DNA of 64,000 nucleotides from Candidatus Komeilibacteria bacterium (GCA_048538275.1 JBLYPW010000001.1:113248-177247); one strand, 5' to 3'. Counted from the first letter of the stretch, positions 33,809 through 53,198 are shown. Translations and numbers: made by a program. Notes: generated by a model not told the origin, from the sequence alone.

Positions 33809-33883
33809 TCCGCGGTAGCTCAGCGGTAGAGCAGTTGACTGTTAATCAATTGGTCGTCGGTTCGAATCCGACCCGCGGAGCCA
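33809..33883 (+). tRNA. tRNA-Asn (anticodon GUU), CCA encoded
   Basis: TCCGCGG acceptor pairing with CCGCGGA; anticodon stem GTTGA/TCAAT with loop CTGTTAA; T-loop TTCGAAT. Confidence 0.85.
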
Positions 33884-35431
33884 TGTGAGACGAAGCGAGT
33901 TTAATGACTCGTTTTTTCTCTTATCTAAGCCATTTTCATGTAGTTCAAAAGTGGAATTTAGACGAGGCATCCATTTAAGTAAAAATTCAAAAGACGGTGT
34001 GCATTTTGTAGCTAGTTTAAGGTCTTTTAATTCAAAGTTCAAAAATATTTCACTTAAAATTTCTCTTTTCATTTCTGTGCTTGTTTTAGGATTTAAATAA
34101 TCTTTTTTAGCATTGAAAGCCAAATCGTGAATAGCGACAGCTTCTTTGTAAAAGTCTATAGTATTGTCATTTAGTTTTTTAATCTTTTTCTTGATTAATT
34201 TTTCAGTTGCTGAATACTCCTCAAACTTTTTATTATAAAATTCAAGAGTTATGTTTTTGTCTATTTTATCCTCATAAATAGATTCTAGCCTTTGTTCTGT
34301 TTTCTTAAGTTCAATATTATAAGTTTTCATTTGTGTTTCTTTGTATTCTTTTTGATCGGCAAAACTATCTTTTAAGTTTTTTTCAAGCCAATTTAAAACC
34401 CTTTCATTTTGAGGTGAAATCTTATCAAACAAAGGTAGTATCATTTCTTCCAAATCTTCCTGTCTAATATACTTTTTTTGAGAACAAGGTTTATATCTAT
34501 TACAATAGCCATACCAATGGCCTTTTTGTTTTGCCCATGTTATTGTTCCGCCACATTCACCACATTTTATTTTACCTTTAAATACTGGTAGGTGTTTGCT
34601 ATATCGTGGAGCATTAATCTGTCTTGTGATTTTACTTTGCACTTTATCAAACAATTCCTCGGTTATTATAGCCTTTTGTTTGCCTTGATATATTTTATTA
34701 TTCCACCTTAATTTGCCACAATAGAAAGGTTCTAATAAAAAACGGTGCATAGAGCTTTTGCCAACAGCTTTACCATTTCTTGACCTCAGTCCTTTGTCAT
34801 ACATAACTTCACATAGCTTTTTAAGCGAATAATTGCCTGTAGAATAAAGTTTAAACATTATTTTGATATATGGAGCCACTTCGTCATTTATGACGTGTAT
34901 TTTGTGTCCTTTTTCGCCTATGGTTTTGTAGCCAATCGGTGGTTTTGTTGGTAGCCAGCCCTCTTCAATTTTAGCTTTTTGTCCCTTTTTAACTTCTTCA
35001 CTTAAATTGTCTATATAGTTTTTTGCAAATAAAATTCTAATACCCCAATTAAGCTTTTCTTGTGATCTGGAGTCTTTATGCATAATGAGGCTATCTTTAA
35101 CTAGGTGAACTTTTCGCTCGCCGTCTTGTTTGAGCCAACTGTCAACTGCAACCATATCTTTAAAGTTTCTAGTTAAGCGGTCAGCTTTTTCACAAACAAT
35201 AATCTTGAGTTTTTTATCTTTTATATATTTCAACATCTCACCGAATTTATCTCGTTGTTTTTCGCCGCTTGCACTTTCAGATATTTTAAAAATCTTTTCA
35301 ATTACTAATTCTTTTTTATAACAATATTCTTTCAAGTATTTTTCTTGAGCAGGCAAAGAATATCCAGTTTCTTCTTGTTCTTTACTAGATACTCGACAAA
35401 ATATTATACATTTTTGTTTATTGTTTTCCAT
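33842..35431 (-). CDS. large serine recombinase (integrase of the inovirus-like element)
   Basis: N-terminal IIFCRVSSKEQEETGYSLPAQ (catalytic Ser), recombinase domain, CGECGG..C zinc ribbon. The C-terminal SDSNRRPID is encoded antisense to the tRNA-Asn T-arm (the tRNA extends from position 33842 to 33883). Confidence 0.85.
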   Translation of the reverse strand: MENNKQKCIIFCRVSSKEQEETGYSLPAQEKYLKEYCYKKELVIEKIFKISESASGEKQRDKFGEMLKYIKDKKLKIIVCEKADRLTRNFKDMVAVDSWLKQDGERKVHLVKDSLIMHKDSRSQEKLNWGIRILFAKNYIDNLSEEVKKGQKAKIEEGWLPTKPPIGYKTIGEKGHKIHVINDEVAPYIKIMFKLYSTGNYSLKKLCEVMYDKGLRSRNGKAVGKSSMHRFLLEPFYCGKLRWNNKIYQGKQKAIITEELFDKVQSKITRQINAPRYSKHLPVFKGKIKCGECGGTITWAKQKGHWYGYCNRYKPCSQKKYIRQEDLEEMILPLFDKISPQNERVLNWLEKNLKDSFADQKEYKETQMKTYNIELKKTEQRLESIYEDKIDKNITLEFYNKKFEEYSATEKLIKKKIKKLNDNTIDFYKEAVAIHDLAFNAKKDYLNPKTSTEMKREILSEIFLNFELKDLKLATKCTPSFEFLLKWMPRLNSTFELHENGLDKRKNESLNSLRLTWLRGSDSNRRPID

Positions 35432-35753: not shown

Positions 35754-36530
35754 TTATAGGTGATTAAAGAATATACTTTTATCAAAGACACCAAATCTAA
35801 AAGGTATAAACTCTAAGGAATAAGCTTTGTATTCAACTTCGCCAGTCCATTCAGATTCAAATATCTTTTCAAAGACAGGTTTTACAGTATTTAAAAACTT
35901 CTCTAAAAACCTTATAGCCCAATAGCCCATAAGTTCTATGGCTTTTTTTAATGTTTGTGAGTGAAAGAATTTCTTTTTGCCAAAAGTTCTATCATCAAAC
36001 ATATCTTTACTTAAATACTTACAAACATAAGCTCCAATATTATTTACATTATTAATTTCATTAACCCTAATAAAACCCTGTCCCCAAACAAACTCAAGTT
36101 CAGATATTTCCATAAAAGGTAGCCTGCAGAGCAAATGATAATGAACAGCTCCTCTTTTTTGAAACTCAGGTACAGCTAAATATTCAAAGTCAGGGTATTT
36201 ATACAAAATACGCTTAACAAACTGATTAAATATATAATTAGCTTCTTTTAGTGAGGTAATATTCTTAGCAAAGGTTAAAGTCATGAATTTGTTTAATTGG
36301 GGGTTGGCGTTGGTTAATCGTCTTATCTCTGTTTTTGTTCGATTAAGTGAAAATATTGCTTTTTGTTTCTTTATTTCTAATTGCTTGAAAGCATTTAATT
36401 GTATGGGCTCTTTTTGAGTATTATTATTGTTATCTTTCTTTTTATAGTCTCGCCAGACCGGTTTTTTATACTTAAATACTTCAACTTGTTTGCCAGATAC
36501 CACAATTTTGAGATTGTAGGTATTTGCCAT
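35754..36530 (-). CDS. rolling-circle replication initiator (HUH endonuclease Rep)
   Basis: Motif 1 FMTLTF, motif 2 GAVHYHLL (HuH), motif 3 GAYVCKYLSKD (catalytic Tyr-x-x-Lys). Confidence 0.75.
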   Translation of the reverse strand: MANTYNLKIVVSGKQVEVFKYKKPVWRDYKKKDNNNNTQKEPIQLNAFKQLEIKKQKAIFSLNRTKTEIRRLTNANPQLNKFMTLTFAKNITSLKEANYIFNQFVKRILYKYPDFEYLAVPEFQKRGAVHYHLLCRLPFMEISELEFVWGQGFIRVNEINNVNNIGAYVCKYLSKDMFDDRTFGKKKFFHSQTLKKAIELMGYWAIRFLEKFLNTVKPVFEKIFESEWTGEVEYKAYSLEFIPFRFGVFDKSIFFNHL

Positions 36531-36690
36531 AACTGTTTTTCGTTAGATGTGTGGTTATAATCGAGTTAAGATATTGGCGTTATTTTTATATCATTTTAAG
36601 CAATCTTTTTTGCCGTCGGTGCGGGCATTCCCGCCGGACAAAAAAGCTTGCCCTTAATAAAGTGAATTATTAAAAACATGCTTAAAATAA

Positions 36691-37359
36691 TCATTTGTCT
36701 TTTATTGGTATTAGCCCAGTATTATCATTGGAATATTCTTTATTGTATTGGCGATAATATGGGAATTCGGGATACTTGATAAAATTTACCGCTTCATGAG
36801 TGTTGTAGCAGTTGGCTTTTTGTTTATTAAATAAAAAGAACCGTCTTTTAACTGCTCGTCTACGCAGGTTATCATCTTTTAAATCTTGCAGTTCAAAATA
36901 AGAGACCATAAAAAGCTTATTAAAGAGATTTCTTACTTCGGCAAAGTGTTGCCCTAGATCTCTTATTCTTTTATCTATGTTTGAAGTATGCTGAACACCA
37001 GCCCAAATATCTAAAGGGATGATTTGCCCTTTATCATTTTTTTTAACATCATGCCTATGAGCTGAGAATTTTTGTTTAGCAGACGGTGGCATTTCTTGCC
37101 ATTCCCGAGAGTCAAAATATCCTTGGGCTTCATCAATAAATATTTGTCCGCCTTTTATGTGTAGGAGTTCTGGTATTTCAGACCAAAAGAATACCTTACC
37201 TAGTGTTTCTTTTTTTATCTTTTTCTTTTCTATATATGCTGAAAAATCTAGTTTCCAATTAGCATAAACATCATAGCCTTTTAAAAACATAGAAAGCGCC
37301 TGATAAGTCATATACAGAGTTTTACCAGCCCCGGGTTTGCCTGTAATAATAGTAATCAT
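36691..37359 (-). CDS. Zot-like P-loop NTPase (inovirus pI assembly ATPase-like)
   Basis: N-terminal Walker A MITIITGKPGAGKT; Walker B IFIDEAQ; Zot-family arrangement. Confidence 0.65.
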   Translation of the reverse strand: MITIITGKPGAGKTLYMTYQALSMFLKGYDVYANWKLDFSAYIEKKKIKKETLGKVFFWSEIPELLHIKGGQIFIDEAQGYFDSREWQEMPPSAKQKFSAHRHDVKKNDKGQIIPLDIWAGVQHTSNIDKRIRDLGQHFAEVRNLFNKLFMVSYFELQDLKDDNLRRRAVKRRFFLFNKQKANCYNTHEAVNFIKYPEFPYYRQYNKEYSNDNTGLIPIKDK

Positions 37360-37361
37360 AA

Positions 37362-37604
37362 TTATCTAATTAGAGTGGCTAGCTTCATAATCAGGGTAAT
37401 AATAAGTAGGGTCATTTCAATAATAAAGACAGCTAGTAGTATTTTAAAAAGCGTAACCACAGGAAAGATTAAATCTATCTTGGCAATAGTTGGAGTAATT
37501 ACAGCAAAAGCATTATTAACAGCAGTTAAAATACTGCTATCGGTATTTGCTTCAGGAAGTAGGTTAAATATTTTTATTAAGATTGTTTCTAAAGTATCAA
37601 GCAT
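37362..37604 (-). CDS. small hydrophobic protein (pVI-like minor coat, putative)
   Basis: 80 aa made of two or three TM helices, lying between the pIII-like and Zot-like genes. Confidence 0.35.
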   Translation of the reverse strand: MLDTLETILIKIFNLLPEANTDSSILTAVNNAFAVITPTIAKIDLIFPVVTLFKILLAVFIIEMTLLIITLIMKLATLIR

Positions 37605-37609
37605 ATTAT

Positions 37610-39280: not shown

Positions 39281-39342
39281 TGTAGTTTTTATTTAATGCA
39301 AGTTAAGGGGCTAAAAGAAATAGCCCCTTTTCCTGCAATATG

Positions 39343-39616
39343 CTATCTCATGAAGCGTCGCGTTAAGCGCCACACAAAGCCGATAGAAAAGATGATCACA
39401 CCAACAATAACAATGTTTACGATATTGGCAGTTATTACACCGACAATATTTTCTTTCATTGTATCTACCACACTAGCGGTAGTTGCTGCGACATCTGTAT
39501 CGACTACGGCGAAAGCACTTGAGCCAAGTGCTAGTCCACTGGCAACAGCCAAGGACAAGGCAGTTAGCCTAGCATTGCTTTTTGAGAGAAAGCCTTTAAG
39601 TTTGGTCAACATAGTC
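39343..39616 (-). CDS. inovirus major coat protein (pVIII-like)
   Basis: From the internal Met: signal MLTKLKGFLSKSNARLTALSLAVASGLALGSSAFA, an amphipathic acidic segment, a TM helix IVGVITANIVNIVIVGVIIFSIGFV, and a basic tail WRLTRRFMR. The 39675 start in the ORF track is unlikely. Confidence 0.55.
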
Positions 39617-39622
39617 TCTTTT

Positions 39623-40042
39623 TTAAGAATTAAGTTTTTTAACGAATAACAATAGCACGCCGACCATTGTTCCAATTACCAAACCAAGTACAATCGCTTT
39701 AGCAAAGACAATGGCAATAATTAAGAAATTGTCTAAGTAGCACGAATTGTTTAGTAAGATGTAATCTGAACACATACTATTTGCCCGACATTATTGTTAA
39801 AAAAATGCTCAAGACTATGTAAAGGACAAGAGGGAAAACCAGCCCTAGGCCAATTCCTGAAAATAAATTGTTTACCATTCCGGCCATATTTAGGATTTGA
39901 AAATAATTAAGATTATGATGAGTATTAGCAGTCCGAACAAAACCGCAAATGACACGGTAAGCAGTTGGCTAAAAAAGTTGATTAAATCCAACGCATTATC
40001 TGTCAATGTATAGGTATTATCTAGGGTGGTTATAAAATCCAT
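39623..40042 (-). other. three tandem tiny hydrophobic ORFs (50, 36 and 50 aa) below the ORF-track cutoff; candidate pVII/pIX-like minor coat genes
   Basis: Minus-strand ORFs at 39890-40042 (MDFITTLDNTYT...LILIIILIIFKS), 39777-39887 (MAGMVNNLFSGIGLGLVFPLVLYIVLSIFLTIMSGK) and 39623-39775 (MCSDYILLNNS...LLLFVKKLNS). Each has one TM helix. Confidence 0.3.
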
Positions 40043-40047
40043 TGCTT

Positions 40048-40311
40048 TTACTCTTTATTGGGGATGTAATAATCCGCAAAAGCCCTTTTTCTTTTCTTGT
40101 CCTGAATGTAATAAGGGAATATTTCTACATCAAGGGTAATAAGATCGCCTTGTTTACCGATTTTAAGATTCATATCCCGAATATTTACTTTCACGGGATA
40201 TAGACTATTCTCGGGTTCTATATACACAAGACGACTTTGGCCTTGAGTTCCGTCTTTACGAGTAAAGTCCCTTATTTCCTCTCTTTTAATTTTGCCTGTA
40301 AGTTTAAACAT
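40048..40311 (-). CDS. small basic protein, possible ssDNA-binding protein (gV-like) of the filamentous phage
   Basis: 87 aa, which is the size of gV, and a position at the element edge. No motif proof. Confidence 0.3.
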   Translation of the reverse strand: MFKLTGKIKREEIRDFTRKDGTQGQSRLVYIEPENSLYPVKVNIRDMNLKIGKQGDLITLDVEIFPYYIQDKKRKRAFADYYIPNKE

Positions 40312-40324
40312 AAGTTTTGGCTTT

Positions 40325-40351
40325 TTAATTGATTTAAGTTCGCAATCGACC
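40325..40351 (+). repeat. degenerate tRNA-Asn 3'-end-like sequence; candidate distal att site of the prophage
   Basis: ttaattgatttaagttcgcaatcgacc resembles ttaatcaattggtcgtcggttcgaatccgacc of tRNA-Asn, in the same orientation, just beyond the last phage-like gene. Confidence 0.3.
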
Positions 40352-40428
40352 TTTTAATATTTTGCGATTATGTTTCTAGCTTAAACTAACAAAGTTCTGA
40401 AAAGTTCTGTAAACTTTTTTCAGAATAT

Positions 40429-40453
40429 TAAAAAAGCCCCGTGTTAAGGGGCT
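40429..40453 (-). terminator. rho-independent terminator
   Basis: Stem agcccc/ggggct with loop gtgttaa, followed on the minus strand by a T6 run. Confidence 0.5.
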
Positions 40454-40555
40454 TTAAGGGTATTATTTTTCAGAATTTTATCTTATTTTATTAACATTAA
40501 TTTTTTTTATGTAATTATTTAAATCGAATTTTTTAATTAAAAACATATTTCTATT

Positions 40556-41080
40556 TTAATTGTAGCTGTCAATTATTCCATCAATACCATCAAAATAAAA
40601 ACATGAGGGCGTCTTGTTGCTATAACACGCTTGATATTCATCACCAGACCCATAATTAGATTTATTTAAGGAGTTTGGTTCACCCATAATTTCTTTTAAC
40701 ATATCAAATGTCATTCCAATCCAGATTTTATCTTTTACAATTTTTTCACAGTCATCTTTAAGCCATTCAGTGTTTTTTTGACAAATTTTACCCGCTTCAG
40801 TATTATCATACCATTCCAAACCCTCGGTCGTTTTAAGCCATTTTAAATATTCTGCTTCCTTTTCCTGGCGTTCAACAAATTCATTATAACCACTGACGTT
40901 AAAAAGGACATTGTAAGTACCCCACCCAATTAGTCCAATAATAATTAAAACAACCCAAACGCTTGCAGGCGTTTTTTTCTTCGGTTCTTTTTTTTCTTGC
41001 TTGTTTAAAAATTCTCCGCAATATTTACACTTAATAGCATTATCATTTATTTCTTCAGCGCAATAGGGACATTTTTTCAT
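40556..41080 (-). CDS. zinc-ribbon membrane protein with extracytoplasmic domain, hypothetical
   Basis: N-terminal CPYC...CKYCG, a single TM, and a Cys-containing C-terminal domain. Confidence 0.4.
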   Translation of the reverse strand: MKKCPYCAEEINDNAIKCKYCGEFLNKQEKKEPKKKTPASVWVVLIIIGLIGWGTYNVLFNVSGYNEFVERQEKEAEYLKWLKTTEGLEWYDNTEAGKICQKNTEWLKDDCEKIVKDKIWIGMTFDMLKEIMGEPNSLNKSNYGSGDEYQACYSNKTPSCFYFDGIDGIIDSYN

Positions 41081-41117
41081 ATATTTATTGATTAATATCT
41101 GGGTTTTTATAAAAGTT

Positions 41118-41540
41118 TCAAGCTAGTTTTTTTAGACGCCTCATTATTTTGCCCATATCTTCAATATCAGCTTTGTTTAGTATTGCGCCATCTTCATACA
41201 ATGTATGTATTAATTTGGCTATTAATTCTTCCAGTTCTCCATCTACGTAAAACAATATGTCTCCTAAGTCTTTTTTTATATCAATTTCACTTTCAGCAAA
41301 ATAACGACTTGCCATTATTCCTGAATTTTTAAATAAATCTTCTGGAAACATACCTTCATTTGCCATTATTTTTCCCATGGCTATATATAATTGTTTATAT
41401 ACTCTTCTGAAAATTACTAATTTCGTTTCAAATATTTTTAACTTTTTACTTATATAATATTGAAAAATCATTCCGATGAGCACGCCAACAATAGAGCCAA
41501 TTCCAAGTTGTATAAAAAAGGCAGTAATTGTTTCTAGCAT
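41118..41540 (-). CDS. hypothetical membrane protein
   Basis: 140-aa ORF with an N-terminal TM helix (FIQLGIGSIVGVLIGMIF); no motif I recognise. Confidence 0.35.
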   Translation of the reverse strand: MLETITAFFIQLGIGSIVGVLIGMIFQYYISKKLKIFETKLVIFRRVYKQLYIAMGKIMANEGMFPEDLFKNSGIMASRYFAESEIDIKKDLGDILFYVDGELEELIAKLIHTLYEDGAILNKADIEDMGKIMRRLKKLA

Positions 41541-41595
41541 ATATTTATTGATTAATAAACTTATTTGCTTTAATCATATATAAAAATTGATGTTT

Positions 41596-42402
41596 TTATA
41601 GGTATTTTTTATTTAATTTTATTTTACCCTTTATACCGGTATTATATTTCAGAAAACTTTTTATGTCTATAATTTGTTGTATCTTGGTATTTATCTCATT
41701 ACAAGTATTGTGGTATTTTTTCCAGTTGTTTTTATCTTTGGTATATTCAAGGTCAGCAAATTCATCCTCAGCTATTTCAGCATAATAAAAGTCATCTTTC
41801 AGATTATCTTTATTGGTTATAAAGATATATTTAAGTATTTTATGAGCATTGGTAATTTTATTTTGTTTGCTAATAGGTACTTTTTTACCTTTGATATATA
41901 AAATGCTTTTAATTTCATCAAAATAGGTTTTCTCATCTTTATCGTTTGAAGTAATAAAGACTTTTTGATCAAGCTGGTCAAATACTTCACTATTTACCAC
42001 CTTAAAAGAAAGTTCAAGCATTTGTTTAGAATATGGTTTTGAGAAAAGTTTACGAAGCGAGTCAAATTCTTGCTTTTCTTTAAGACAGCAAGCTTTTACC
42101 TTTTTCATCTTGCCATGGATTATTTCAAGGTTTTTGTAATATATCCAAAACTCACTAGAAAAGAGAGCTTGTCCCTCAACATCTAGGAATTTATCCTCAT
42201 CAAGCAGTTCATCGGGTTTACCTATGAATTTAGCAGTGCTATCAAAAATATCTTGTAAAATATCTTTAATTAAGGGGTCTGAGTTTAAAAAACGAATATA
42301 CTTATACACAATAACAAAACGCTGAAAAATGTTTGTCTCAATCGAAAAAAGACGAGCAAACTCGTTCATCTTTTCTTTGATATTTCGAGCATGATTCATC
42401 AT
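41596..42402 (-). CDS. hypothetical protein (accessory island)
   Basis: 268 aa; no recognisable motifs; very AT-rich. Confidence 0.4.
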   Translation of the reverse strand: MMNHARNIKEKMNEFARLFSIETNIFQRFVIVYKYIRFLNSDPLIKDILQDIFDSTAKFIGKPDELLDEDKFLDVEGQALFSSEFWIYYKNLEIIHGKMKKVKACCLKEKQEFDSLRKLFSKPYSKQMLELSFKVVNSEVFDQLDQKVFITSNDKDEKTYFDEIKSILYIKGKKVPISKQNKITNAHKILKYIFITNKDNLKDDFYYAEIAEDEFADLEYTKDKNNWKKYHNTCNEINTKIQQIIDIKSFLKYNTGIKGKIKLNKKYL

Positions 42403-42634
42403 GATTTTGGCATGGGTCGTTTAGCATATTTCTTATCTATAAGTATAGAGGAAAATGTCTCATCTGAACAATTAGGCTATTAATAAGGAGTTTTTAAAGC
42501 ATAGCCCTTTACGGTGTGAATAAGTATTGTTTTAGCTAATTATATTTTTTGACTTTTTGGCTTATTTAAGGGATAATAAAGAGGATTTTATAATAAATAC
42601 ATTCTAACATTCAACGATAAGTTTCATATAAATT

Positions 42635-44404
42635 ATGGCAAAAAAAGATTATACAAATTGGAATAGAAAAGACTTAATCAAAGAGATTGAGCAGCTTCGC
42701 AAACGCAAAAAATATGGGCTTGTTTGGGAAAACAAACCGGAAAATGTTGTTGAGCAATGTAAAACAGAATTGCCAGTTTTGAAAGAAGTCAAAGACAAAG
42801 AAATAACTACCGACCCTGAAAAGCCAGTGAATTTATTGATTGAGGGCGACAACTATCATGCCCTTTCAGTTTTAAATTACACACACAAAGGTAAAATTGA
42901 TGTGATTTACATTGATCCGCCGTATAATACGGGAAATAAGGATTTCGTTTATAACGATCAATATGTTGATAAAGAAGATGCCTATCGACATAGTAAATGG
43001 ATCTCATTCATGGAAAAAAGACTCTCTCTCGCAAAACCATTACTGAAAACAAATGGAGCAATTTTTGTATCAATTGACGATAATGAGTACCCAAGATTAA
43101 TGATGTTAATGGAAGAAATTTTTGGAGAAAACAAACTAAAAACCGTTTGTGTGAAAATGTCAGAAGCTACTGGTGTTAAAATGGCTAGTGTAATTAAAAA
43201 TGGCAGAATCCCCAAATTAAAAGAATATTTAGTTATAGCAAAAAGAAATGGGATAAAAGATTTATATTTAGAAAAACTACCTAAAGAGCAGTGGGATAGC
43301 GAATATAAAACAATTATCCTAAATACTACAGAGAAAGAAATAAATAAAATCAAAGAAATAAGAGATGACGAGGAAAGAACCGAGGAAGATATTAATTTTT
43401 GTAATAAAAAAATAAGCAGATGGAAAACCTGCTCATTATCTGAATATTTCTCACAAAACAATATCTCAAAAAAAGAGCAGGATGATTTTAAATATAAAAA
43501 TGCGTGGAGAATACTGCAAATTGCCACACTAACAGGTGGTTCTAGAGATAAGGCTGCTGACATTAAAAATAGTTTTTCGAAAGAAGTGCCTGCTTTTTTC
43601 TGTTTAACAACACCACAAAAGAAAATGTATTTGATAAGCGGAACTTTTAATCATGAAACAAAACTTCCCCGATGCAAAGTTTTATTTGCAGATGATTATT
43701 TAACTATACACCCCGGTGATTTTTGGACAGACATAAAAACAACTGGCTTAGATAATGAGGGTGGCGTTGATTTCAGAAATGGTAAAAAGCCAATAAAATT
43801 ATTAGAAAAAGTAGTTAAAACTTACGAAAACAAAAATATTACTGTTTTAGATTTTTTTGCAGGTTCAGGAACATCTGCGGAGGCGGTCTTAAAACTAAAT
43901 AATGAAGATAAAGGAAACAGAAAGTTTATTTTATGTAGTTATAACGAAGAAAATGGAAATGGGAAAATTGTTGATGAATATTGTTATCCAAGAGTAGAAA
44001 AAGCTATCCGTGGCTATAACACCAAAAAAGGTTATGGTGGAAATCTTAAATATTACAAAACTGCTTTTGTTCCAGCCGAACCAACAGACAAAAACAAAAT
44101 TGCAATGACCGAAAAAGCAACGGAAATGCTTTGTGTAAAAGAAGATACTTTTGAAGAAGTAAAATCAACAAAGCAATATAAAATTTTTCGAAATAAGAAA
44201 CGATATACCGGGATTGTTTTCGATCATCAAGCGATAGATAATTTTAAAAAGGAAATTGTAAAAATTGACGGCAAATTCAGTCTTTATATTTTCTCGCTCG
44301 GCGATGATACTTTTGACGAGGAGTTTGAAGATATGAAGAAAAAAGTAAAATTATCACCAATACCGGAAGCGATACTACGAGTTTATCGCAGAATATTTAA
44401 ATAA
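42635..44404 (+). CDS. mod: type III restriction-modification methyltransferase (Mod; beta-class N6-adenine MTase)
   Basis: Motif IV IYIDPPYNTGNKDF lies N-terminal to motif I FFAGSGTSAEA (beta-class order). Confidence 0.8.
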   Translation: MAKKDYTNWNRKDLIKEIEQLRKRKKYGLVWENKPENVVEQCKTELPVLKEVKDKEITTDPEKPVNLLIEGDNYHALSVLNYTHKGKIDVIYIDPPYNTGNKDFVYNDQYVDKEDAYRHSKWISFMEKRLSLAKPLLKTNGAIFVSIDDNEYPRLMMLMEEIFGENKLKTVCVKMSEATGVKMASVIKNGRIPKLKEYLVIAKRNGIKDLYLEKLPKEQWDSEYKTIILNTTEKEINKIKEIRDDEERTEEDINFCNKKISRWKTCSLSEYFSQNNISKKEQDDFKYKNAWRILQIATLTGGSRDKAADIKNSFSKEVPAFFCLTTPQKKMYLISGTFNHETKLPRCKVLFADDYLTIHPGDFWTDIKTTGLDNEGGVDFRNGKKPIKLLEKVVKTYENKNITVLDFFAGSGTSAEAVLKLNNEDKGNRKFILCSYNEENGNGKIVDEYCYPRVEKAIRGYNTKKGYGGNLKYYKTAFVPAEPTDKNKIAMTEKATEMLCVKEDTFEEVKSTKQYKIFRNKKRYTGIVFDHQAIDNFKKEIVKIDGKFSLYIFSLGDDTFDEEFEDMKKKVKLSPIPEAILRVYRRIFK

Positions 44405-44415
44405 TTGGAAAAACT

Positions 44416-46629
44416 ATGCAACTAAAAGATTATCAAACTACGGCTATAAAAAAACTCCTCACCAGAAGCAAGGAATTGCTGGCACAAAGTGGCGAGAAGA
44501 AAGTTATTTTCAAAGCTCCGACTGGATCGGGCAAAACCATAATGACGGCGGAATTTTTGAAGCAACTCATTGACGACAAAGAAATCAAAACCCCCCTTTC
44601 GTTTATTTGGACTGCTCCAAGAAAATTACACACACAAAGCAAGGAAAAGCTGGAAAAGTATTATGAAGATACAAGAGCTTTGGAATGTTCCGACTTTGAA
44701 GATTTGACCGACAAACAAATTGGCGAAAATGAAATTTTGTTTTTGAATTGGGAAAGCATAAACAAAAAAGACAAAAATACAATTGTAAAAGAGAATGAGA
44801 AAGAATTTTACCTCGGCAAGATTGTTGAGAATACAAAGGAAGAAGGACGAGAAATCGTCTTGATTATTGACGAAAGTCATCACCATGCCACAAGCGAAAT
44901 CTCGCAAGATTTAATTTCAGATATCGCCCCACGACTAACGATTGAAGTTTCCGCTACTCCTGTTATTTCAAATCCAGACGAGATTGTTTCTGTGCCTTTA
45001 GAAGATGTAAAACTGGAAGGGATGATAAAAAAATCAGTTGTTCTTAATCCAAATTTTAAAAATGTTTTATCTGGCGACAGCTTAAAAACCAAGCTTGCTG
45101 ACGGAACTGATGCAATGGTGCTTGAAGAAGCACTAAAGAAACGAGAAGAAATCGCAAAAGCATACAAAGAAGCAGGAATTGATATAAACCCGCTTTTACT
45201 TATCCAGCTACCAGACCGAAAAACACAAGCGGAAGATCAAGTCAAAAATGATGTTGTGCGGATTTTGAAAGATAAATACGGAATGACAACGGAAAACGGT
45301 AGACTAGCGATTTACTTATCAGAAGAAAAAGAAAATCTTGAGAATATCGCAAAAAATAATCACGAAACTGAAGTTTTGATTTTTAAGCAAGCAATCGCCT
45401 TAGGTTGGGATTGTCCTCGCGCTCAAGTTTTGGTGCTTTTCAGAGATTGGAAAAGTCTTACATTTTCGGTCCAAACAGTCGGGCGAATTATGCGTATGCC
45501 CGAGCCAGACACAGGTCACTACAAACAAGAAATATTGAATCACGGCTTTGTGTTTACAAATCTTGCTGATATTGAAATCAAGGAAGACATGGCAAGAAGC
45601 TATGTAACGATATATACCAGCCAAAGAATTGAAAGCTACAAGCCAATCAAATTAGAATCTGTTTACCGCTTGCGACAACGAGAAAAGACTCGTTTAAGTC
45701 CGAAATTTATCAATATCTTTTTAGATGAGGCTAAAAAGTACGATCTCGAAAAGAAAATTGAAACCAAAGGACAAAAACTGGAACTGTCTTTAATTTCTGA
45801 TTACGAGGCGGAAGGCGTTGATAAATTGGCAAACGAGGAAATCAAAGGCGAAGCCAAAATCAACACTGAAAACGAAGCTGATTTACAAAAGCTATATGAC
45901 TTTTTTGTAAAGAATAATCTATCGCCTTTTTATCCCGAAGATCGCTCAATCGGCAGACTGAAAGAAGCGATTTATTACTTTTTCAGAATGCGCCTTGGCA
46001 TGGAATACACCGACCGTTTTGCTGAAATCATCAATATTGTATTAAGTCCGAAAAATAGCCAACATTTTATAAATGTTATTGATAGCACCAAAGAAAAATA
46101 TATTGCCGAAACTCAAAAACGAGAAGCAGAACTGCAAAAATCAGCTGACTGGGAATTGCCTGAAATGTTGAACTATGGCGGAAACTTTACGGAGTTTAAA
46201 ACCAAATTATCAGCAATGAAGCCGTTTTATTACGACAACAAATGGAAAACTGAAGAAGCATTTATCAAATTTCTTGAAAAATCAGATCAAATTGAATGGT
46301 GGTTTAAAAACGGCGACCGAGACGCTACATTTTTTGCCGTGCCCTATGTTGAAAATGACGAGCAAAAACCTTTTTATGTTGATTTCATTGTAAAATATAA
46401 AGACGGAAAAATTGCTTTGTTTGATACGAAAAGCGGAAACACAATCAAAGACGCACGAGAAAAAAGCGATGGTTTGCAGGAATATACAAAAAAGAACAAA
46501 AACATTACCGGTGGAATTATGGCAAACACAAATTCCAAAGATTTTTCTGGTCGCTGGATGTGCTACAAGGGACAAGGAAATGAACTTAATCCTGATGACT
46601 TTTCTAATTGGGAATTGTTGGAAGTATAA
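44416..46629 (+). CDS. res: type III restriction enzyme Res subunit (SF2 helicase + PD-(D/E)xK nuclease)
   Basis: Helicase motif I KAPTGSGKT; motif II IIDESHH; C-terminal VDFIVKYKDG...FDTK nuclease motif. Confidence 0.8.
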   Translation: MQLKDYQTTAIKKLLTRSKELLAQSGEKKVIFKAPTGSGKTIMTAEFLKQLIDDKEIKTPLSFIWTAPRKLHTQSKEKLEKYYEDTRALECSDFEDLTDKQIGENEILFLNWESINKKDKNTIVKENEKEFYLGKIVENTKEEGREIVLIIDESHHHATSEISQDLISDIAPRLTIEVSATPVISNPDEIVSVPLEDVKLEGMIKKSVVLNPNFKNVLSGDSLKTKLADGTDAMVLEEALKKREEIAKAYKEAGIDINPLLLIQLPDRKTQAEDQVKNDVVRILKDKYGMTTENGRLAIYLSEEKENLENIAKNNHETEVLIFKQAIALGWDCPRAQVLVLFRDWKSLTFSVQTVGRIMRMPEPDTGHYKQEILNHGFVFTNLADIEIKEDMARSYVTIYTSQRIESYKPIKLESVYRLRQREKTRLSPKFINIFLDEAKKYDLEKKIETKGQKLELSLISDYEAEGVDKLANEEIKGEAKINTENEADLQKLYDFFVKNNLSPFYPEDRSIGRLKEAIYYFFRMRLGMEYTDRFAEIINIVLSPKNSQHFINVIDSTKEKYIAETQKREAELQKSADWELPEMLNYGGNFTEFKTKLSAMKPFYYDNKWKTEEAFIKFLEKSDQIEWWFKNGDRDATFFAVPYVENDEQKPFYVDFIVKYKDGKIALFDTKSGNTIKDAREKSDGLQEYTKKNKNITGGIMANTNSKDFSGRWMCYKGQGNELNPDDFSNWELLEV

Positions 46630-48389
46630 TTATGAGAGTAAAATATCTTACAATTCGGAATTTTCGTGGCATAGACAAATTGGAGAATTTGGAAATTTCT
46701 AATTTGAATACTTTTGTCGGAAAAAATGATGCTGGCAAATCAGCAATCCTTAGAGCTTTAGCGTGTTTTTTTGACGTCAAGAAATTTGATATAAAAGATG
46801 TTTTTAAGGGAAAACAAGATAATGACGTAACTTCCATAGAAATATCTTTTGAACCGTCAGTTGAAATTGATGATCTTGCTTTAGACAGTAGAAAACTGAT
46901 TACGATCAAAAAAGAATTTGTCGTTGTTAATGGTAAAGCAAAATCATCTGAATACTACCTATCTAATGACTACATTGATGAAAAGTATCAAAATCTTTGG
47001 AATAAAAAGGAACAAGATTTAAATCAAATTATTTCTGATCTTGGAGAGGAACCAAACAAATCAGGACGAGGTAAGAAAAATATAATTCGAATAGATCAAA
47101 TTAAAACGGCACTCGCAAGAAATATTAGAACGGACACCTACCATGAACTTGAAGACTTTTTAAAAAACATTGAAAAAACCTACAAAATCAGTTTACCTGA
47201 ATACTCCCTTTTTGACGCCGAGCAAGATTTGAATATTGAAGCGACAAATTTTCAATCTCAATTTAAGCCGATTATTTCAGCATATTTTGAAACTACAAAG
47301 GACAAAACCGCAGAAATTGAGAAGGGTCTTAAACAAGACTTGGCGACTGAATTTGAAGAGATTAGAAAGTATATGACAAAAAATGTTTCTGGGTTGAAAA
47401 AACTTAATCCTACAACGGATTTTGATTGGTCCAAATCGTTAAAAAAGTTTGATTTAAACTTGGAATTTGAGGGTCAAAATTTTGATGTTCCAATTTCTCA
47501 TAAAGGCACCGGCTTTAAAAGATTGTTAATGGTTGCGTATTTTGAATATTTAGCAAACAAGAAAAGCATAAAAAATCAAATTTTCGCCATTGAAGAGCCG
47601 GAAACATATCTTCACCCCTCTGCACAGCAAGACCTTCTAAACTCTATTGTAAGAATTTCTGAAGATTCACAGTTTTTTCTAACAACACATTCACCGGTTT
47701 TTGCTGGAGCAACTGACGGAAAAAATTCAATTTTAGTTATAAAAGATGAACTTGGTATATCTCATTATTCAAGAGAGGAACAAGATATTATAGATCAAAT
47801 TATAAATGAACTGGGAATAAGACCAGACTACAATCTCTTAAAAGAAATTAAGTATTTAATTTTTGTCGAGGGTGTAGACGACATTCACTTTTTAAAAACA
47901 TACGCAAAAACCGTACTAAATAAAGATTTGGAAAATGACAAGATACTTTGTGTTATTGGTGGTGGCGGATCATTAAAAAATTATGCAGACCTTAATTTAT
48001 TTAAAAAACTAAAAGGCAATAATCTTTATTCCGTGATGGTTGATGGGGATGACCAGTCAAACGGAAAAGCTAAATGGTGCGAAAGAATAAAAGCTAAATG
48101 CGATGAAGATACAGCTGATTTTAAGAAATTGAGTAAGAGAGAAATTGAAAATTATTGTCATCCTCAGGCAATATGTAGAAAATGCACAGATTTAGATATT
48201 TCTAAAATTGCCATTCAAGATGACACTGACGTTGCAAAACACCTGAAAGAGATAGGTTTAGTAAAGAATTTTAAAAATGATCTAAATATTGAAGTTTTTA
48301 ATGAAATGACAAAAGAAGAGTGGGAGCAAACAGATTCAAATAATGAAGTTAAAGTTTTTATCGAAGCAATATACACAAAAATATCATGA
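46608..48389 (+). CDS. OLD-family nuclease (N-terminal ABC-type ATPase + C-terminal Toprim)
   Basis: Walker [16 protein letters not shown]; ABC signature/D-loop region [19 protein letters not shown]; Toprim-like [11 protein letters not shown] and MVDGDD. Overlaps res by 22 nt. The start may be the internal MRVKYL (46632). Confidence 0.7.
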
Positions 48390-49645
48390 ACGAAATAATA
48401 TGTCCAAAATGTAAAAAAGTTTTCAAAGTCGATGAGGCTGGTTTTGCTGATATACTAAAACAGGTGCGCGACCATAAATTTGAAGAAGAGTTACAGGAAC
48501 GATTAAGCATTGCTGAAAAAGAAAAAGAAAATGCTATTAAATTAGCTGAATCTAATCTAAAAAATACATTACAAGAGGAGTTAACGAAGAAAGATAAGGA
48601 GCTATCAGAATTAAGAGTCGAAAAGGATCGTAATCTTGCGGAACAATTGGCAAAAAAAGAAGCCGAGCTCACCCAAATGAAATCAAAGATTGATAAGGCA
48701 GAAGTAGAGCAAAAACTCAGTGTCACTCAAGCAGTTAATACAGTAGAAAAAGAACGAGATGATCTTAGGGTTAAATTGCAAAGTAAAGAACAAGAAATAC
48801 AACTTCGAGAGGTTTCATTAAAAGAAAAATATGAAAATGAATTAAAAACAAAGGACGAAGTTATTGAGAGGTATAAAGACATGAAGCTAAAGCTTTCTAC
48901 CAAAATGGTTGGCGAAACTTTAGAGCAACACTGTGAAACAGAATTCAATAAATTACGTGCTACTGCCTTTCAAAAAGCTTATTTTGAAAAAGATAATGAT
49001 GCTAGTAGTGGTAGTAAGGGGGATTATATTTATCGCGAAACTGATGAAGCAAAAAATGAAATTATCTCTATTATGTTTGAAATGAAAAATGAGGGAGATG
49101 AAACTGCTACAAAAAAACGAAATGAAGACTTTTTAAAAGAATTAGATAAAGATCGTACCGAGAAAAAATGTGAATACGCAGTTCTTGTTTCGCTTTTAGA
49201 GGCAGATAGTGAATACTATAATACTGGTATTGTTGATGTTTCTCATAAATATCCAAAGATGTATGTTGTCCGACCACAATTTTTTATTCCTATTATTACA
49301 TTGCTTCGTAATGCTTCTTTGAAATCAATGCAATATAAAACAGAGTTAGCGATAGTAAAAGCACAAAACATTGATGTAACTAATTTTGAAAATCAACTTA
49401 ATGATTTTCGTGATTCATTTGGTCGGAATTGGCGCTTAGCTTCAGAAAAATTTGCAACCGCTATTGATAGTATTGATAAATCAATTGCTCAGTTACAAAA
49501 AACAAAAGAAAACCTCTTACGATCAGAAGATAATTTAAGAATTGCAAACAACAAAGCAGACGAATTAACAGTAAAAAAATTAACAAGAGGTAATCCCACA
49601 ATGACAGCTAAATTCGCAGAGATTAATGAAATTGACAAAAAATAA
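48386..49645 (+). CDS. zinc-ribbon + long coiled-coil protein (DUF2130-like), operonic with the OLD-family gene
   Basis: N-terminal [10 protein letters not shown] zinc ribbon and extended heptad-rich sequence. Family assignment is from memory only. The start overlaps the upstream stop by 4 nt. Confidence 0.45.
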
Positions 49646-49950
49646 TATTATCTATAATTTATTTAGCTTGAATCAGCAAAAATAGTTCTAAAGTCGTCCC
49701 GGTATGCGAGCCAAGAGAAACGATGCTATTTAAGTATCGTTTTTCTTTTTTAACTTGGCTCGATTTTTTTTGTGGCTTTTTTATAGTTGCCTTTGCTCTA
49801 CCCGTCCAGCGTGCATTTCGCGCGACCAAGCTGCGTCATAAATTCTCAATGGACAATAAAAACAGCTCAACTTTTTGAGGTGTTTTTGAGTTTACATTGT
49901 GGAGGACAGGGTGTATTATGATAGGGTAAATTAATCATTTATATGCAAAT

Positions 49951-51456
49951 ATGGAACATACTAGTAGTAGTAAATTGAGCAAAAACTTAATTTTGGAACT
50001 TTTATTTAGTACGGGTTTAGCTATTTTTTGGGTTATTTTTTTATGGAATTTTTGGGATAAAGGAGTTTATGTTTTAGGTTTTAATGCCACTATTTTTGGC
50101 TTTATTTTTTTACTTTTATTTATTTGGGTCTTGTATAGAAAAAATTATTATATAAAAAATGATTTGTTTTGGATTATTCCTATCGGGTTAATTTTTTTGA
50201 GTTATTCTTTATATGATAATCCTTTTTTGAAAATGATTAGTTTAGTGGTCACGCCTATTATGTTGGTGCTTTTTTATAATCAAGCTTTCTGGCCTGATAA
50301 AAAAACCAAACTTTGGGATTTGACCTTTATTTTTAGAATTATTGGTAGGTTTTTTTCTTTTCTGCCAAAACTCAGTCAAACAGCACGGCTTTATTTAAGC
50401 TTACTCATGCCTGTTAACAAAGCTAAGCAGAGCATTATAGTTAGAATTATCGGCGGGATTATTTTATTTTTAATAATTGCCCTAACGGTTTTTATCCCGC
50501 TTTTGTCATCAGCCGATCTGATGTTTGCTGATAAAATGCAAGCTATAAATGAGTGGTTTTTGCATATATTTTCTTCGCTTTTTGTTTATAAATTATTAGT
50601 TGTTCTAGCATTGATGCTGGTATTTTTTTCCGCCTTGCAAGCCTGGGGTAGAAAATTTGATTATCAAGCCAAAGAAGAATTTGATACTAAGATTGATTCC
50701 ATTATATCCGGCATCGTCTTGGGCGGTATTCTTTGTTTATATTTATTATTCTTAGGAGTGCAAATAAACCGCTTATGGATTGGGGCGCTACCTTTTGATT
50801 TTCAAGAAACAGAAAGTTTAGTAAAGAGTGGTTTTTGGCAATTACTAGTTTTATCTATTATCAATATTTTAATATATTTTACTACCTACAGAAAAACCAC
50901 ACTATGGGTACAAAGAATATTAACGGTCTTTACAGTCGCGTCATTATTTTTATTGATTTCCGCGGGCTATCGTATGGGGCTTTATATTACTTATTATGGG
51001 CTTAGTTATGAAAAGTTTTTTGCTTCTTATACCGTCATCTATTGTGCTATTTTATTTATTTGGTTGATTATTCAGTTATTTCTCAAACGGGGAGCTAATA
51101 TATTGAAGTTTATAATAATTCTTTTTCTGTGGATGTATGCTTTAGTTAGCATTGCTCCGGTTGAACAATTTATATTACGTAGCAATATTGCCTTGAGCCA
51201 AGTTAATGGATCAAGAATTAGATTGTTTGAACTGACAATGTTATCGCCAGATATTCTTTCTTTGGTGAAAAAATATGAACAACGAGGATTATTACAAGAG
51301 AATGTTGGTTATCTTTCTCGGGAAAAAGAAAATAAAACTAATGATAAGTTTGATTGGCATCCGTGGATTGAGCGTCAAGAAAAAACAATAGCAGATAAAG
51401 TTTGGTATGAAAAAAATTTCACCAATGTTTTATACTCAATAAATAACGATCAATAA
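49951..51456 (+). CDS. polytopic membrane protein (about 12 TM), hypothetical
   Basis: 501-aa ORF with about 12 evenly spaced hydrophobic helices. Confidence 0.45.
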   Translation: MEHTSSSKLSKNLILELLFSTGLAIFWVIFLWNFWDKGVYVLGFNATIFGFIFLLLFIWVLYRKNYYIKNDLFWIIPIGLIFLSYSLYDNPFLKMISLVVTPIMLVLFYNQAFWPDKKTKLWDLTFIFRIIGRFFSFLPKLSQTARLYLSLLMPVNKAKQSIIVRIIGGIILFLIIALTVFIPLLSSADLMFADKMQAINEWFLHIFSSLFVYKLLVVLALMLVFFSALQAWGRKFDYQAKEEFDTKIDSIISGIVLGGILCLYLLFLGVQINRLWIGALPFDFQETESLVKSGFWQLLVLSIINILIYFTTYRKTTLWVQRILTVFTVASLFLLISAGYRMGLYITYYGLSYEKFFASYTVIYCAILFIWLIIQLFLKRGANILKFIIILFLWMYALVSIAPVEQFILRSNIALSQVNGSRIRLFELTMLSPDILSLVKKYEQRGLLQENVGYLSREKENKTNDKFDWHPWIERQEKTIADKVWYEKNFTNVLYSINNDQ

Positions 51457-51460
51457 TGCA

Positions 51461-52351
51461 TTGCTGCTCAATATGAAAAAACCAATCATAATTTTAATCA
51501 TTATACTTGCGTTGATTACTTTAGTTGCGTTGTATTGGTTTGTGAGAGGTGATGCCTGTTTGACTCAGCCACCATATTTTAATTGTCATATACAAAATAA
51601 GTTTGCGGAAATAGATGCCGAATTTAACAATTTATCAGGCCAAATTTTAAGTTTAAACGAGCCATCTATTTTTAATATTGATAAATATGATGGTATATTT
51701 TCTTTTGATCATATAGGAGAAGATACAGATGTTGGTGTTGGTTGGACTAGAATAATGCAAAATGAGGAGATTAGGGATTCTTTGGGGTTTTATACCAATT
51801 ATATTGATCCTATACTGACGCCTTTGACCGAAAATACATTGATAGGTTCGGCATGGCAATGGCCAAAAGATAGTAAACTGTATAATGGGCCATTTTTTAA
51901 TTATTATTTGGACTTTAGTAGACGACAAACTACTGTGCTACCCACCAAAGGCAAATTAATGGCCAAGTCATCAGATGGTAAAAAAGTTGTTTTTTTGGAG
52001 AGTGAATGTGTCAAAAATCCCGCTGTTATGGAAATAGATCATAGCTGTAATAATAAAAATTTAAGTTTAAGGTTAATTACCTTGCCTCCTGTGAATGATG
52101 GCTATTTTATTACACATTTTGAAGCGACAAAATTACTTGATTTTAATCATATTATTTTTTCTCCCGACGATACGAGATTAGTCATAGAGGCCAAAATTGA
52201 AGCCATGGACTATGACACGCCCACCGCATATTGGAATTTGTTTATCATTGATACTGAAAACGGAGAAATTATTAAACAAAATAATAGATTATCAAAGAGT
52301 AGATATGAGCATGTTTTTTGGTCTGATAATGTTAATATAATTTATTGGTAA
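51461..52351 (+). CDS. hypothetical secreted/membrane-anchored protein
   Basis: N-terminal TM; no motifs. Confidence 0.4.
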   Translation: MLLNMKKPIIILIIILALITLVALYWFVRGDACLTQPPYFNCHIQNKFAEIDAEFNNLSGQILSLNEPSIFNIDKYDGIFSFDHIGEDTDVGVGWTRIMQNEEIRDSLGFYTNYIDPILTPLTENTLIGSAWQWPKDSKLYNGPFFNYYLDFSRRQTTVLPTKGKLMAKSSDGKKVVFLESECVKNPAVMEIDHSCNNKNLSLRLITLPPVNDGYFITHFEATKLLDFNHIIFSPDDTRLVIEAKIEAMDYDTPTAYWNLFIIDTENGEIIKQNNRLSKSRYEHVFWSDNVNIIYW

Positions 52352-52448
52352 ATTGATGATTATGTCGCCTGTCAATAATGCGCTTTTTTGTTTATATTAG
52401 AAAAGTTTATTATAATGACGGTGTAGTAAATAATTAATTTATTATTTT

Positions 52449-52916
52449 ATGAAGTTAAAAGTAGGTGATCAGGCACCGGATTTTTCGGCACTTGATCAAA
52501 AAGGTGAGGAACATAAGTTGGCCGATTATAAGGGTCGGTGGCTATTATTATATTTTTATCCCAAAGATGATACGCCCGGGTGCACGACTGAGGCTTGTAC
52601 TATCAGAGACAATTATGCGGATTTTAAGAAAATTAAAGCTGTGGTATTAGGCGTGAGCGTAGATAATGTTGCCAGTCATGTTAAGTTTGTCCATAAATAT
52701 AAATTACCTTTTATTTTATTGGCGGATGAAGATAAAGTAATTGTGAAGGCTTATGGCGCTTGGGGTAAAAAGAAATTTATGGGTCGTGAATATATGGGTA
52801 CTAGCCGTATTTCTTTTTTGATTGATCCGCAGGGTAAGATTGCTAAAATTTATGATCCAGTGAAACCAGCTAAACACGCCGCAGAAGTATTGGCTGATTT
52901 AGAAGAATTGGTTTAG
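52449..52916 (+). CDS. bcp: thiol peroxidase Bcp (peroxiredoxin Q)
   Basis: FYPKDDTPGCTTEAC peroxidatic Cys motif; 155 aa. Confidence 0.85.
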   Translation: MKLKVGDQAPDFSALDQKGEEHKLADYKGRWLLLYFYPKDDTPGCTTEACTIRDNYADFKKIKAVVLGVSVDNVASHVKFVHKYKLPFILLADEDKVIVKAYGAWGKKKFMGREYMGTSRISFLIDPQGKIAKIYDPVKPAKHAAEVLADLEELV

Positions 52917-53198
52917 TGATTTTGGGGCAAGATGACAAATTGAATAAGTAAGTAGTTGCTTGCCATTATTATGACATTTTTATTTGATCTAGTTTTATTG
53001 GGTAGCAAGAGAATTGGTCTGCAATGTTTTGTGATTTATGATAATGTTTTTATTTGGTTTTTAAATTGTTAGCAGGGAGGGCAGCGTTGGGAAAGAAAAA
53101 AGAAGATCATATAATTATTGCTAAGCGATTAGTCTTCTCTTGGTTTTCAAAAACCCTTCGTCAAGGCGAAGGGTTTTTCATTTACTGATCAGTTTGAT

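Follow-up and report, generated by a model that had tools for sequence, protein, structure and literature searches.

A four-gene operon in the Patescibacteria genome of Candidatus Komeilibacteria bacterium, at 42635-49645 of the 64,000-nt stretch of DNA analyzed here (the window; GCA_048538275.1, JBLYPW010000001.1:113248-177247), encodes a type III restriction-modification (R-M) pair (Mod and Res), an OLD-family protein in which an ABC ATPase is joined to a Toprim domain, and a protein of the family DUF2130. This operon probably combines three anti-phage modules, each mobile on its own, and is carried as layered defense cargo beside the attachment (att) site of an integrated filamentous-phage-like element; judged from related loci, it is layered cargo and not one obligate four-part machine. 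The pairing of OLD with DUF2130 is undescribed and recurs in Escherichia coli and other bacteria. This pairing, together with the wider habit of DUF2130 genes of tailing restriction operons, is what is new here. An earlier note on the same DNA had described the four genes and suggested that they could form a composite or novel defense system; the observation was largely right, the single composite system only partly so.

Organization of the operon

The four genes are co-oriented open reading frames (ORFs) on the + strand, as the earlier note had described. mod (42635-44404) encodes 589 amino acids (aa) and is followed after 11 nt by res (44416-46629; 737 aa). The OLD gene (46632-48389; 585 aa) and the DUF2130 gene (48386-49645; 419 aa) share a 4-nt overlap with the sequence ATGA, which had been noted correctly. 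However, the 22-nt overlap reported between res and OLD arises only with an alternative TTG start at 46608. As the Pfam match of OLD begins at residue 9 of the TTG-started ORF and the gene calls of every close homolog give a length of 585 aa, which matches an ATG at 46632, this ATG is the likely start, and the two genes are separated by 2 nt.

A promoter-like site (TTGACT-17-GATAAT, 42549..42577, + strand) lies 58 nt ahead of the mod ATG. It is a consensus match only (10/12 positions), and its score is the joint best on the + strand in the region, where four sites reach 10/12. The sole + strand hairpin resembling an intrinsic terminator after the operon (49713..49747) overlaps the right att site, attR (~49714-49728), and is presumably the terminator of the host tRNA-Asn. 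A single promoter and a single terminator thus appear to serve all four genes, and their co-transcription seems probable. The earlier reading of the operon as a functional unit holds insofar as the genes are packed as one transcription unit, but an obligate four-gene unit is not supported by the modular distribution described below.

Type III methyltransferase and restriction helicase

The assignment of Mod as a beta-class N6-adenine (m6A) DNA methyltransferase of the type III kind was upheld by profile searches (PF01555 in Pfam, 1.5e-30; MTase_III in PADLOC, up to 1.4e-77) and by its motif order, in which DPPY (around residue 94) precedes FxGxG (around residue 407). Its homologs align only at residues 1-180 and ~380-589, and the target-recognition center between them is variable. 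Res is a compact superfamily 2 (SF2) helicase with a C-terminal PD-(D/E)xK motif. It matched PF04851 (ResIII; 3.4e-21) and gave a weak, partial match to PADLOC REase_III (1.8e-16, residues 231-383). Helicase motifs I (GSGKT), II (DESH), and VI (QTVGR), as well as D656 and D670-x-K672, were invariant in 25 homologs, an alignment that is shallow (76 to 97% identity). Of the earlier annotation (helicase plus PD-ExK), the helicase half stands, and the PD-ExK half is a putative assignment based on the invariant motif.

The AlphaFold2 (AF2) model of Res has an overall predicted local distance difference test (pLDDT) score of 66. Within it, residues 600-737 form an alpha-beta-beta-beta-beta-alpha-beta arrangement (pLDDT ~80-90) that fits a PD-(D/E)xK core. 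The Foldseek matches of Res were SF2 helicases, including EcoR124I HsdR and EcoP15I Res (E 4.5e-4); with a full model at this pLDDT, the structure search gave no domain-specific fold match for the putative PD-(D/E)xK domain, and a sequence search of solved structures yielded nothing for Res. At the C terminus of Res, public precomputed annotation assigns a YagJ-type domain (PF27151). We also considered whether OLD might serve as a substitute nuclease for a nuclease-less Res. This was ruled out, as Res retains the invariant D...DxK and exists without OLD.

The pair resembles type III R-M systems of the EcoP15I/EcoP1I kind in that mod precedes res, Mod is a beta-class N6-adenine methyltransferase whose central recognition region can be swapped, and Res carries SF2 helicase motifs ahead of a PD-(D/E)xK motif. 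Both the MTase_III and the REase_III models of PADLOC match, and EcoP15I Res is among the structural matches. It differs in the length of Res (737 aa, versus ~870-1020 aa for Res of the comparison loci L001 and L127) and in the lack of the TypeIII_RM_meth N-terminal domain of Mod that is present in L001. By analogy, Mod would methylate adenines in the host at sites that its variable central region determines, and Res, as an SF2 ATPase with a putative PD-(D/E)xK domain, would cut unmethylated incoming DNA.

A class 1-type OLD protein at the end of an R-M operon

Profile searches agreed with the earlier naming of the third gene as a class 1-like OLD protein (Pfam AAA_15, 4.5e-42; PADLOC Old, 4.1e-32 over residues 9-485). 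The best match in the PDB was 6P74, the class 1 OLD of Thermus scotoductus (TsOLD), with which the protein aligns to the start of the Toprim domain. The ATPase residues G30..K36-S37 (Walker A), E321-E324 (Walker B), and H353 (H-loop) and the Toprim residues E413 and D471-x-D473 were invariant in 15 homologs reaching down to 42% identity. Taken alone, the Pfam Toprim match lies under its curated cut-off (19.0 versus 23.2 bits). PADLOC GajA models also match the protein (1e-20 to 1e-22); the Old and AriA models score best.

In published schemes, OLD proteins of class 1 are solitary, those of class 2 are found with a UvrD-like helicase (Gabija), class 3 comprises retrons and class 4 PARIS, and archaeal Cran1 has been added beside these four; no PD-(D/E)xK partner is included (PMC10568477, PMC12392090, PMC12796447). 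Class 1 is defined as single genes without conserved partners (PMC10568477, PMC12392090). The window OLD resembles class 1 members (P2 Old, Thermus scotoductus OLD, and Vibrio cholerae OLD) in carrying ABC ATPase and Toprim on one polypeptide, in its intact catalytic residues, and in having no helicase or reverse transcriptase neighbor. However, its clade regularly ends R-M operons, being the last gene in 12 of about 20 loci, and in the window the gene overlaps that of a DUF2130 nuclease. Solitary members of the clade exist (L027, L131); the clade as a whole departs from the definition of a single gene with no conserved partner.

Gabija (GajA and GajB) likewise places an OLD-family ATPase-Toprim gene first and a tightly coupled, DNA-acting partner second. 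In the window, however, the partner is a coiled-coil PD-(D/E)xK nuclease and not a helicase: neither Pfam nor PADLOC detected a helicase domain in the window DUF2130, which sets the pair apart from Gabija. The earlier statement that no named system fits was confirmed by a PADLOC run, in which no system covered the combination.

DUF2130 as a predicted PD-(D/E)xK nuclease

The fourth protein had been described as a DUF2130-like coiled coil with a zinc ribbon. The family assignment is firm (PF09903, 7.6e-88; 294.5 bits, with the cut-off at 26.7 and profile positions 3-254 of 255 aligned), and long helices are present. The protein is identical to one from a Candidatus Komeilibacteria genome. The zinc ribbon did not hold up: among 40 homologs, there was one conserved N-terminal knuckle (C6-P7-x-C9), and not the four zinc ligands in two CxxC/H knuckles of a zinc ribbon. 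The other conserved cysteines, C183 and C262, sit inside a nuclease core that the earlier description had missed. Its PD-(D/E)xK signature (E180, D213, and E232-x-K234) is invariant in the 40 homologs (43 to 59% identity).

The AF2 model (pLDDT 81.6) consists of a small N-terminal hairpin, whose short strands (residues 3-14) are of low confidence, a helix of ~150 residues (17-170), an alpha/beta core (179-296; pLDDT ~75-90), and a helix of ~100 residues (297-393). Foldseek matches in the PDB were weak (E 0.04), and the leading ones were nearly all PD-(D/E)xK proteins (AspBHI, MspJI, PaqCI, NucS, and Can2). The family was listed, with unknown function, in the 2012 census of the PD-(D/E)xK superfamily (PMC3424549). 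On these grounds DUF2130 is a member of this superfamily with an intact catalytic core and a predicted nuclease activity.

The family is large (3,818 clusters when grouped at 50% identity) and spans at least 596 species. No experimental function, and no paper linking DUF2130 to defense, turned up in the literature and databases searched; four papers in the full-text library name the family, none of them on defense. Sequence comparison with solved structures gave noise only, and PADLOC returned no significant match, with one weak hit to LmuB (1.6e-4). There was no PHROG match and none among the INPHARED phage records. The nearest characterized model is ShdA of the Shield system, an RmuC-domain, membrane-bound nuclease that is sufficient for phage defense (PMC10270631). 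Both are PD-(D/E)xK-superfamily nucleases with variable accessory genes; however, ShdA is membrane bound and carries the RmuC domain, while DUF2130 is predicted to be soluble and belongs to another Pfam family. The window protein has no Pfam RmuC domain (PF02646), no PADLOC ShdA match, and no hydrophobic N-terminal segment, and homology to RmuC was dropped as an explanation after hhalign against E. coli RmuC gave a probability of 0.1%.

The modules occur separately in related loci

Each part of the operon was found in other settings. Mod-Res stands alone, without OLD or DUF2130, in four loci (L041-L044; Res 89 to 95% identical); in a Chlorobi genome and another Patescibacteria contig, the solo pair (Res 95% and 89%) is preceded only by a small helix-turn-helix (HTH) gene. 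A Mod-Res-OLD cassette recurs in six further contexts (seven loci: L017-L020, L022, L023, and L025) and partly in L021. These loci come from Spirochaetota, Moraniibacteriota, and several metagenome contigs, with Res 88 to 96% and OLD 84 to 94% identical and the Mod center variable. The OLD start follows the res stop after 2 nt in L017-L020 by gene calls, and 5 to 14 nt separate the tblastn matches in L021-L025. In none of the seven other loci (six contexts) does DUF2130 follow the cassette. Across genomes labeled Patescibacteria, Chlorobi, Flavobacterium, Spirochaetota, and Delongbacteria, Res and OLD are 77 to 97% identical, which implies that the cassettes spread between phyla very recently, unless the contigs are mis-binned.

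OLD homologs of 73 to 84% identity are also the last gene after R-M or defense operons of other kinds: a type I R-M system with Mrr-nSTAND3, a RadC-Dcm/HpaII/Vsr set, and a DUF4011 helicase-nuclease. One distant homolog is solitary, and one (L030) follows a very divergent DUF2130, so that the gene order is reversed. Likewise, close DUF2130 homologs (76 to 90% nt identity) follow five unrelated operons, and their DNA homology to the window starts exactly at the ATG. The operons upstream include a type III Mod-Res with a LexA-like gene and a SMODS cyclase, a type I R-M system with embedded Shedu and Fic, an EcoRI-type methylase with GmrSD-HNH, and PLD-SNF2 with an MmeI-like methyltransferase. 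In other loci, DUF2130 was found after HsdR, HerA, or an SMC-like ATPase. Within a proteobacterial DUF2130 clade, the partners swap at a fine scale among OLD, HerA, an SMC-like ATPase, a 2,215-aa DUF4011 helicase-nuclease, and none.

Several further observations concern the neighbors of DUF2130. Giant helicase-nucleases of ~1,940 to 2,215 aa (DUF4011, AAA_11/12, MTES_1575, and DUF3320) adjoin it in three species, downstream in L057 and L061 and upstream in L089; in L028, a related 1,609-aa protein is encoded two genes upstream of an OLD homolog. On the Lactococcus plasmids pNP40 (L125, 7001-10871) and pC42 (L126, 7001-10623), DUF2130 is preceded by a divergent 377-aa gene and followed by a large TrlF-like AAA ATPase whose C terminus matches PADLOC Ppl. 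This three-gene block is common to two different plasmids, both of which carry R-M genes and one of which (pNP40) also carries an Abi gene. Judged by the domains listed, none of the seven systems newly named in PMC11381338 (Rhea, Aristaios, Kamadhenu, and four more) includes the pNP40 DUF2130 gene. In L013-L015, a complete Gabija pair (GajA-like OLD and UvrD-like helicase, 11326-14586) lies two genes downstream of DUF2130 as a separate system. It is accompanied by TIR and NERD genes and is absent from the otherwise identical L016. The comparison of L013-L015 with L016 shows that the cargo on both sides of DUF2130 turns over rapidly.

Recurrence of the OLD-DUF2130 pair

A census of GTDB covered 76 species-representative loci with DUF2130 at 57 to 90% identity. 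Neighbor families were counted by scanning pooled neighbor proteins, which yields counts per family and not a complete annotation of each locus; the defense-associated share of DUF2130 loci is therefore approximate. In the two genes upstream, the commonest families were AAA_21, SMC_N, AAA_15, AAA_23, and OLD-like Toprim. An OLD-family gene was the commonest upstream neighbor of DUF2130: an OLD-like gene lay immediately upstream in 5 of 71 loci, and of the 775 other genes of these loci, 2 were OLD-like (p = 7e-5). In IMG/VR, OLD was directly upstream in 6/22 loci, with a 2-nt gap or a 4-nt overlap. About one-third of DUF2130 genes had a same-strand upstream gene within 60 nt.

Three to four OLD lineages that are very divergent (21 to 43% identity) show the order OLD then DUF2130. 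Among proteobacterial pairs in different genomic settings, identities fall together (OLD, 73 to 87%; DUF2130, 75 to 98%), as they would in genes inherited together. One gene order is common to E. coli H5/H6, a plasmid of Citrobacter freundii, and IMG/VR locus L145: an HTH/WYL regulator, an SNF2-like helicase, and DUF4391 are followed by OLD, DUF2130, and a bona fide type III Mod and Res. In E. coli H5, the OLD-DUF2130 region spans 2223260-2226552 of NZ_CP010169.1. Thus, the genes do co-occur elsewhere, although the earlier note had allowed that they might never do so: OLD-DUF2130 beside type III R-M recurs, in another gene order, but the association is modular and facultative.

Of 5,426 complete E. 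coli genomes, 54 contain the HTH/WYL-SNF2-DUF4391-slot-Mod-Res scaffold. In L130, L132, and L133 (E. coli H5, CFT073, and 0H25), the slot is occupied by OLD-DUF2130, by a 900-aa ATP-binding protein, or by a remnant of 41 aa. The scaffold sits in integrative islands, adjoining tRNA-Leu in CFT073, and the same enterobacterial OLD also occurs alone in a prophage. The position of the E. coli pair, in a variable slot between SNF2 helicase/DUF4391 and type III Mod-Res, resembles the arrangement of loci labeled Hma in PADLOC; the Hma and HEC labels we take to denote helicase-methylase scaffolds with embedded candidates. The E. coli helicase matches HmaA (8.6e-26), and both OLD proteins match HEC-01A. 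The window differs in having neither SNF2 helicase nor DUF4391, and the HEC-01A models differ in being ATPase-only (~400 aa), with DUF2130 itself matching no PADLOC model.

Layered defense and its alternatives

Gene content, catalytic motifs, modular distribution, and the recurrence of OLD-DUF2130 are direct observations; the enzymatic activities are those predicted for the respective families. In the layered arrangement that we favor, restriction by Mod-Res, a compact type III-like pair that is probably self-sufficient, would presumably act first. OLD and DUF2130 would then provide a second nuclease layer that acts on DNA that has escaped or been damaged. OLD is a predicted class 1-type nuclease of a clade that repeatedly joins the 3' end of restriction operons, and DUF2130 a predicted soluble coiled-coil nuclease that repeatedly joins the 3' end of ATP-dependent restriction or defense operons, most often behind an OLD gene. 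The two also tend to join each other and might even form a two-protein unit with physical contact, like GajA-GajB.

Several points weigh against this account. It draws on sequences and predicted structures, and the full Res model is of low confidence (pLDDT 66). Four of the five GTDB cases of OLD-DUF2130 belong to one cassette lineage, and the adjacency would therefore have only about three or four independent origins. For about two-thirds of DUF2130 genes, no upstream gene is tightly linked; these look monocistronic, many of them among housekeeping genes, and the identity of the family across phyla (57 to 69%) is far above that of typical defense genes. Elsewhere, DUF2130 hardly ever accompanies a member of the window OLD clade (L030, the one exception, has the reverse order), and OLD does not precede members of the window DUF2130 clade. 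As these clades usually occur apart, the pair in the window may be a recent chance joint; the ATGA used in it already ends the OLD gene in L018.

In the main rival, DUF2130 is a conserved nuclease of DNA recombination or repair, or serves the element itself, and provides a homology arm for cassette exchange, so that its adjacency to OLD is a by-product. The start of DNA homology exactly at the DUF2130 ATG behind differing upstream genes would be expected under such a role, as would the location of the gene beside an att site or a serine recombinase in the window, L001-L008, and L155, its unusually strong conservation, the many monocistronic copies among housekeeping genes, and its absence from PADLOC and PHROGs. 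However, a by-product would hardly account for the enrichment of OLD at the one position immediately upstream, where the two genes lie 2 nt apart or overlap by 4 nt, for proteobacterial pairs that co-diverge in unrelated contexts, or for the presence of DUF2130 beside an AAA ATPase on phage-resistance plasmids, such as Lactococcus pNP40. We therefore regard this explanation as rather unlikely.

Two further explanations lie at opposite ends of the scale of integration. Were the operon one machine, in which the type III enzyme recognizes and tracks DNA and OLD and DUF2130 contribute additional or substitute cleavage activities, none of the four proteins would work properly alone. The very tight gene packing, the conservation of the Mod-Res-OLD junction across phyla, and the renewed meeting of type III Mod-Res, OLD, and DUF2130 in Enterobacteria are compatible with such a machine. 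It is nevertheless quite improbable, as Res retains its own invariant PD-(D/E)xK motif, Mod-Res (Res 89 to 95%) exists without OLD or DUF2130, DUF2130 is missing from 7/7 other Mod-Res-OLD loci, and the E. coli slot carries other genes or a remnant in other strains. Plain adjacency in a defense island, with three modules joined by chance recombination on a mobile element and devoid of functional interplay, would account for the occurrence of every module without the others and for a joint ATGA that already ends OLD in L018, consistent with a microhomology joint. Chance alone does not readily explain why R-M-then-OLD arose repeatedly with different R-M types, or why OLD-then-DUF2130 recurs with three to four OLD lineages of 21 to 43% identity, and we give this explanation very little credence. 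Layered cargo made of three mobile modules thus remains the reading that we prefer.

The host element

The operon forms one end of an integrated inovirus-like (filamentous-phage-like) element of ~15.8 kb (33878-49728), located by sequence comparison at a tRNA-Asn gene of this Patescibacteria genome. Its boundaries were set by comparison with L001, which has the junction form, and with L002, which has the integrated form. The tRNA-Asn (GTT; 33809..33883, + strand; ARAGORN) is the integration target. The left att site, attL (~33878-33900), lies directly past its 3' end, where the sequence GAGACGAAGCG... matches the recombinase-side arm of an attP-like junction in L001. The right arm ends at ~49714-49728, inside the terminator hairpin, and homology to L001/L002 stops at 49718-49726. 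As the att arms map to these two positions, the four genes are the cargo end of the element. No long direct repeats were found as att sites around 33.8 and 49.7 kb, as expected for an integrase that is a serine recombinase.

This large serine recombinase (33842..35431, - strand) carries Resolvase, Recombinase, and Zn_ribbon_recom domains (PHROG 95, 5.4e-74). Its final ~14 codons extend into the tRNA-Asn gene, which suggests that integration alters the C terminus of the integrase. It is followed, also on the - strand, by a rolling-circle Rep (REP_ORF2-G2P; 35754..36530; Pfam, 1.4e-19; PHROG 3419, 8.9e-28) with 67% nt identity to L001 and by a Zot/pI-like morphogenesis ATPase, an inovirus hallmark (36691..37359; Pfam Zot, 4.2e-9; PHROG 197 and PHROG 1675, the latter annotated as M13 protein I), with 74% nt identity to L001. 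The last core gene ahead of the cargo (41596..42402, - strand) encodes a conserved 268-aa protein with no assigned function and shares 70% nt identity with a 271-aa gene at the same position in L001-L008, where the core genes of the element also flank close DUF2130 homologs.

A perfect 20-nt direct repeat (CATATATTTATTGATTAATA) occurs at 41078-41097 and 41538-41557. Its copies sit on the start codons of adjacent small element genes (174 aa and 140 aa, - strand) and may represent a duplicated start or regulatory region. G+C content is ~0.26-0.37 over 34-53 kb, compared with ~0.40 in most of the flanking sequence. It is still low (0.31-0.33) in the ~3 kb past the right end of the element (49900-53000), which encode a DUF4153 membrane protein, a 296-aa protein without family match, and an AhpC/TSA peroxiredoxin; this may reflect either another insertion or just the base composition of the three genes.

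The sister element in L001 (1-21260; ENA ERZ27293386 k141_155585) repeats itself with a period of ~17.7 kb, with Mod starts at 2779 and 20452, which indicates a circular or tandem form. Its cargo comprises type III Mod-Res, a LexA-like repressor, a 165-aa protein, an SMODS/AGS_C cyclase, and DUF2130.

Implications

Current OLD classification has no class with a nuclease partner and calls class 1 solitary; on both counts it looks incomplete. We tentatively raise the idea, which is possible but on balance doubtful, that OLD-DUF2130 constitutes a fifth OLD gene-context class, with a PD-(D/E)xK nuclease in place of the Gabija helicase, and that DUF2130 is a general tail nuclease. If so, DUF2130 would have been recruited by many ATP-dependent, DNA-tracking defense motors, including type I and type III R-M, OLD, HerA, SMC-like ATPases, and DUF4011 helicase-nucleases, to finish or process their DNA products. 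As E. coli H5/H6 and a Citrobacter plasmid carry the pair, ordinary coliphage assays would be suitable for its study.

DUF2130 is a large and very well conserved family with an intact nuclease core, found at the 3' end of restriction and defense operons in many phyla. In Patescibacteria, an integrative filamentous-phage-like element appears to carry ~7 kb of swappable defense cargo, which bears on how organisms with small genomes gain immunity.

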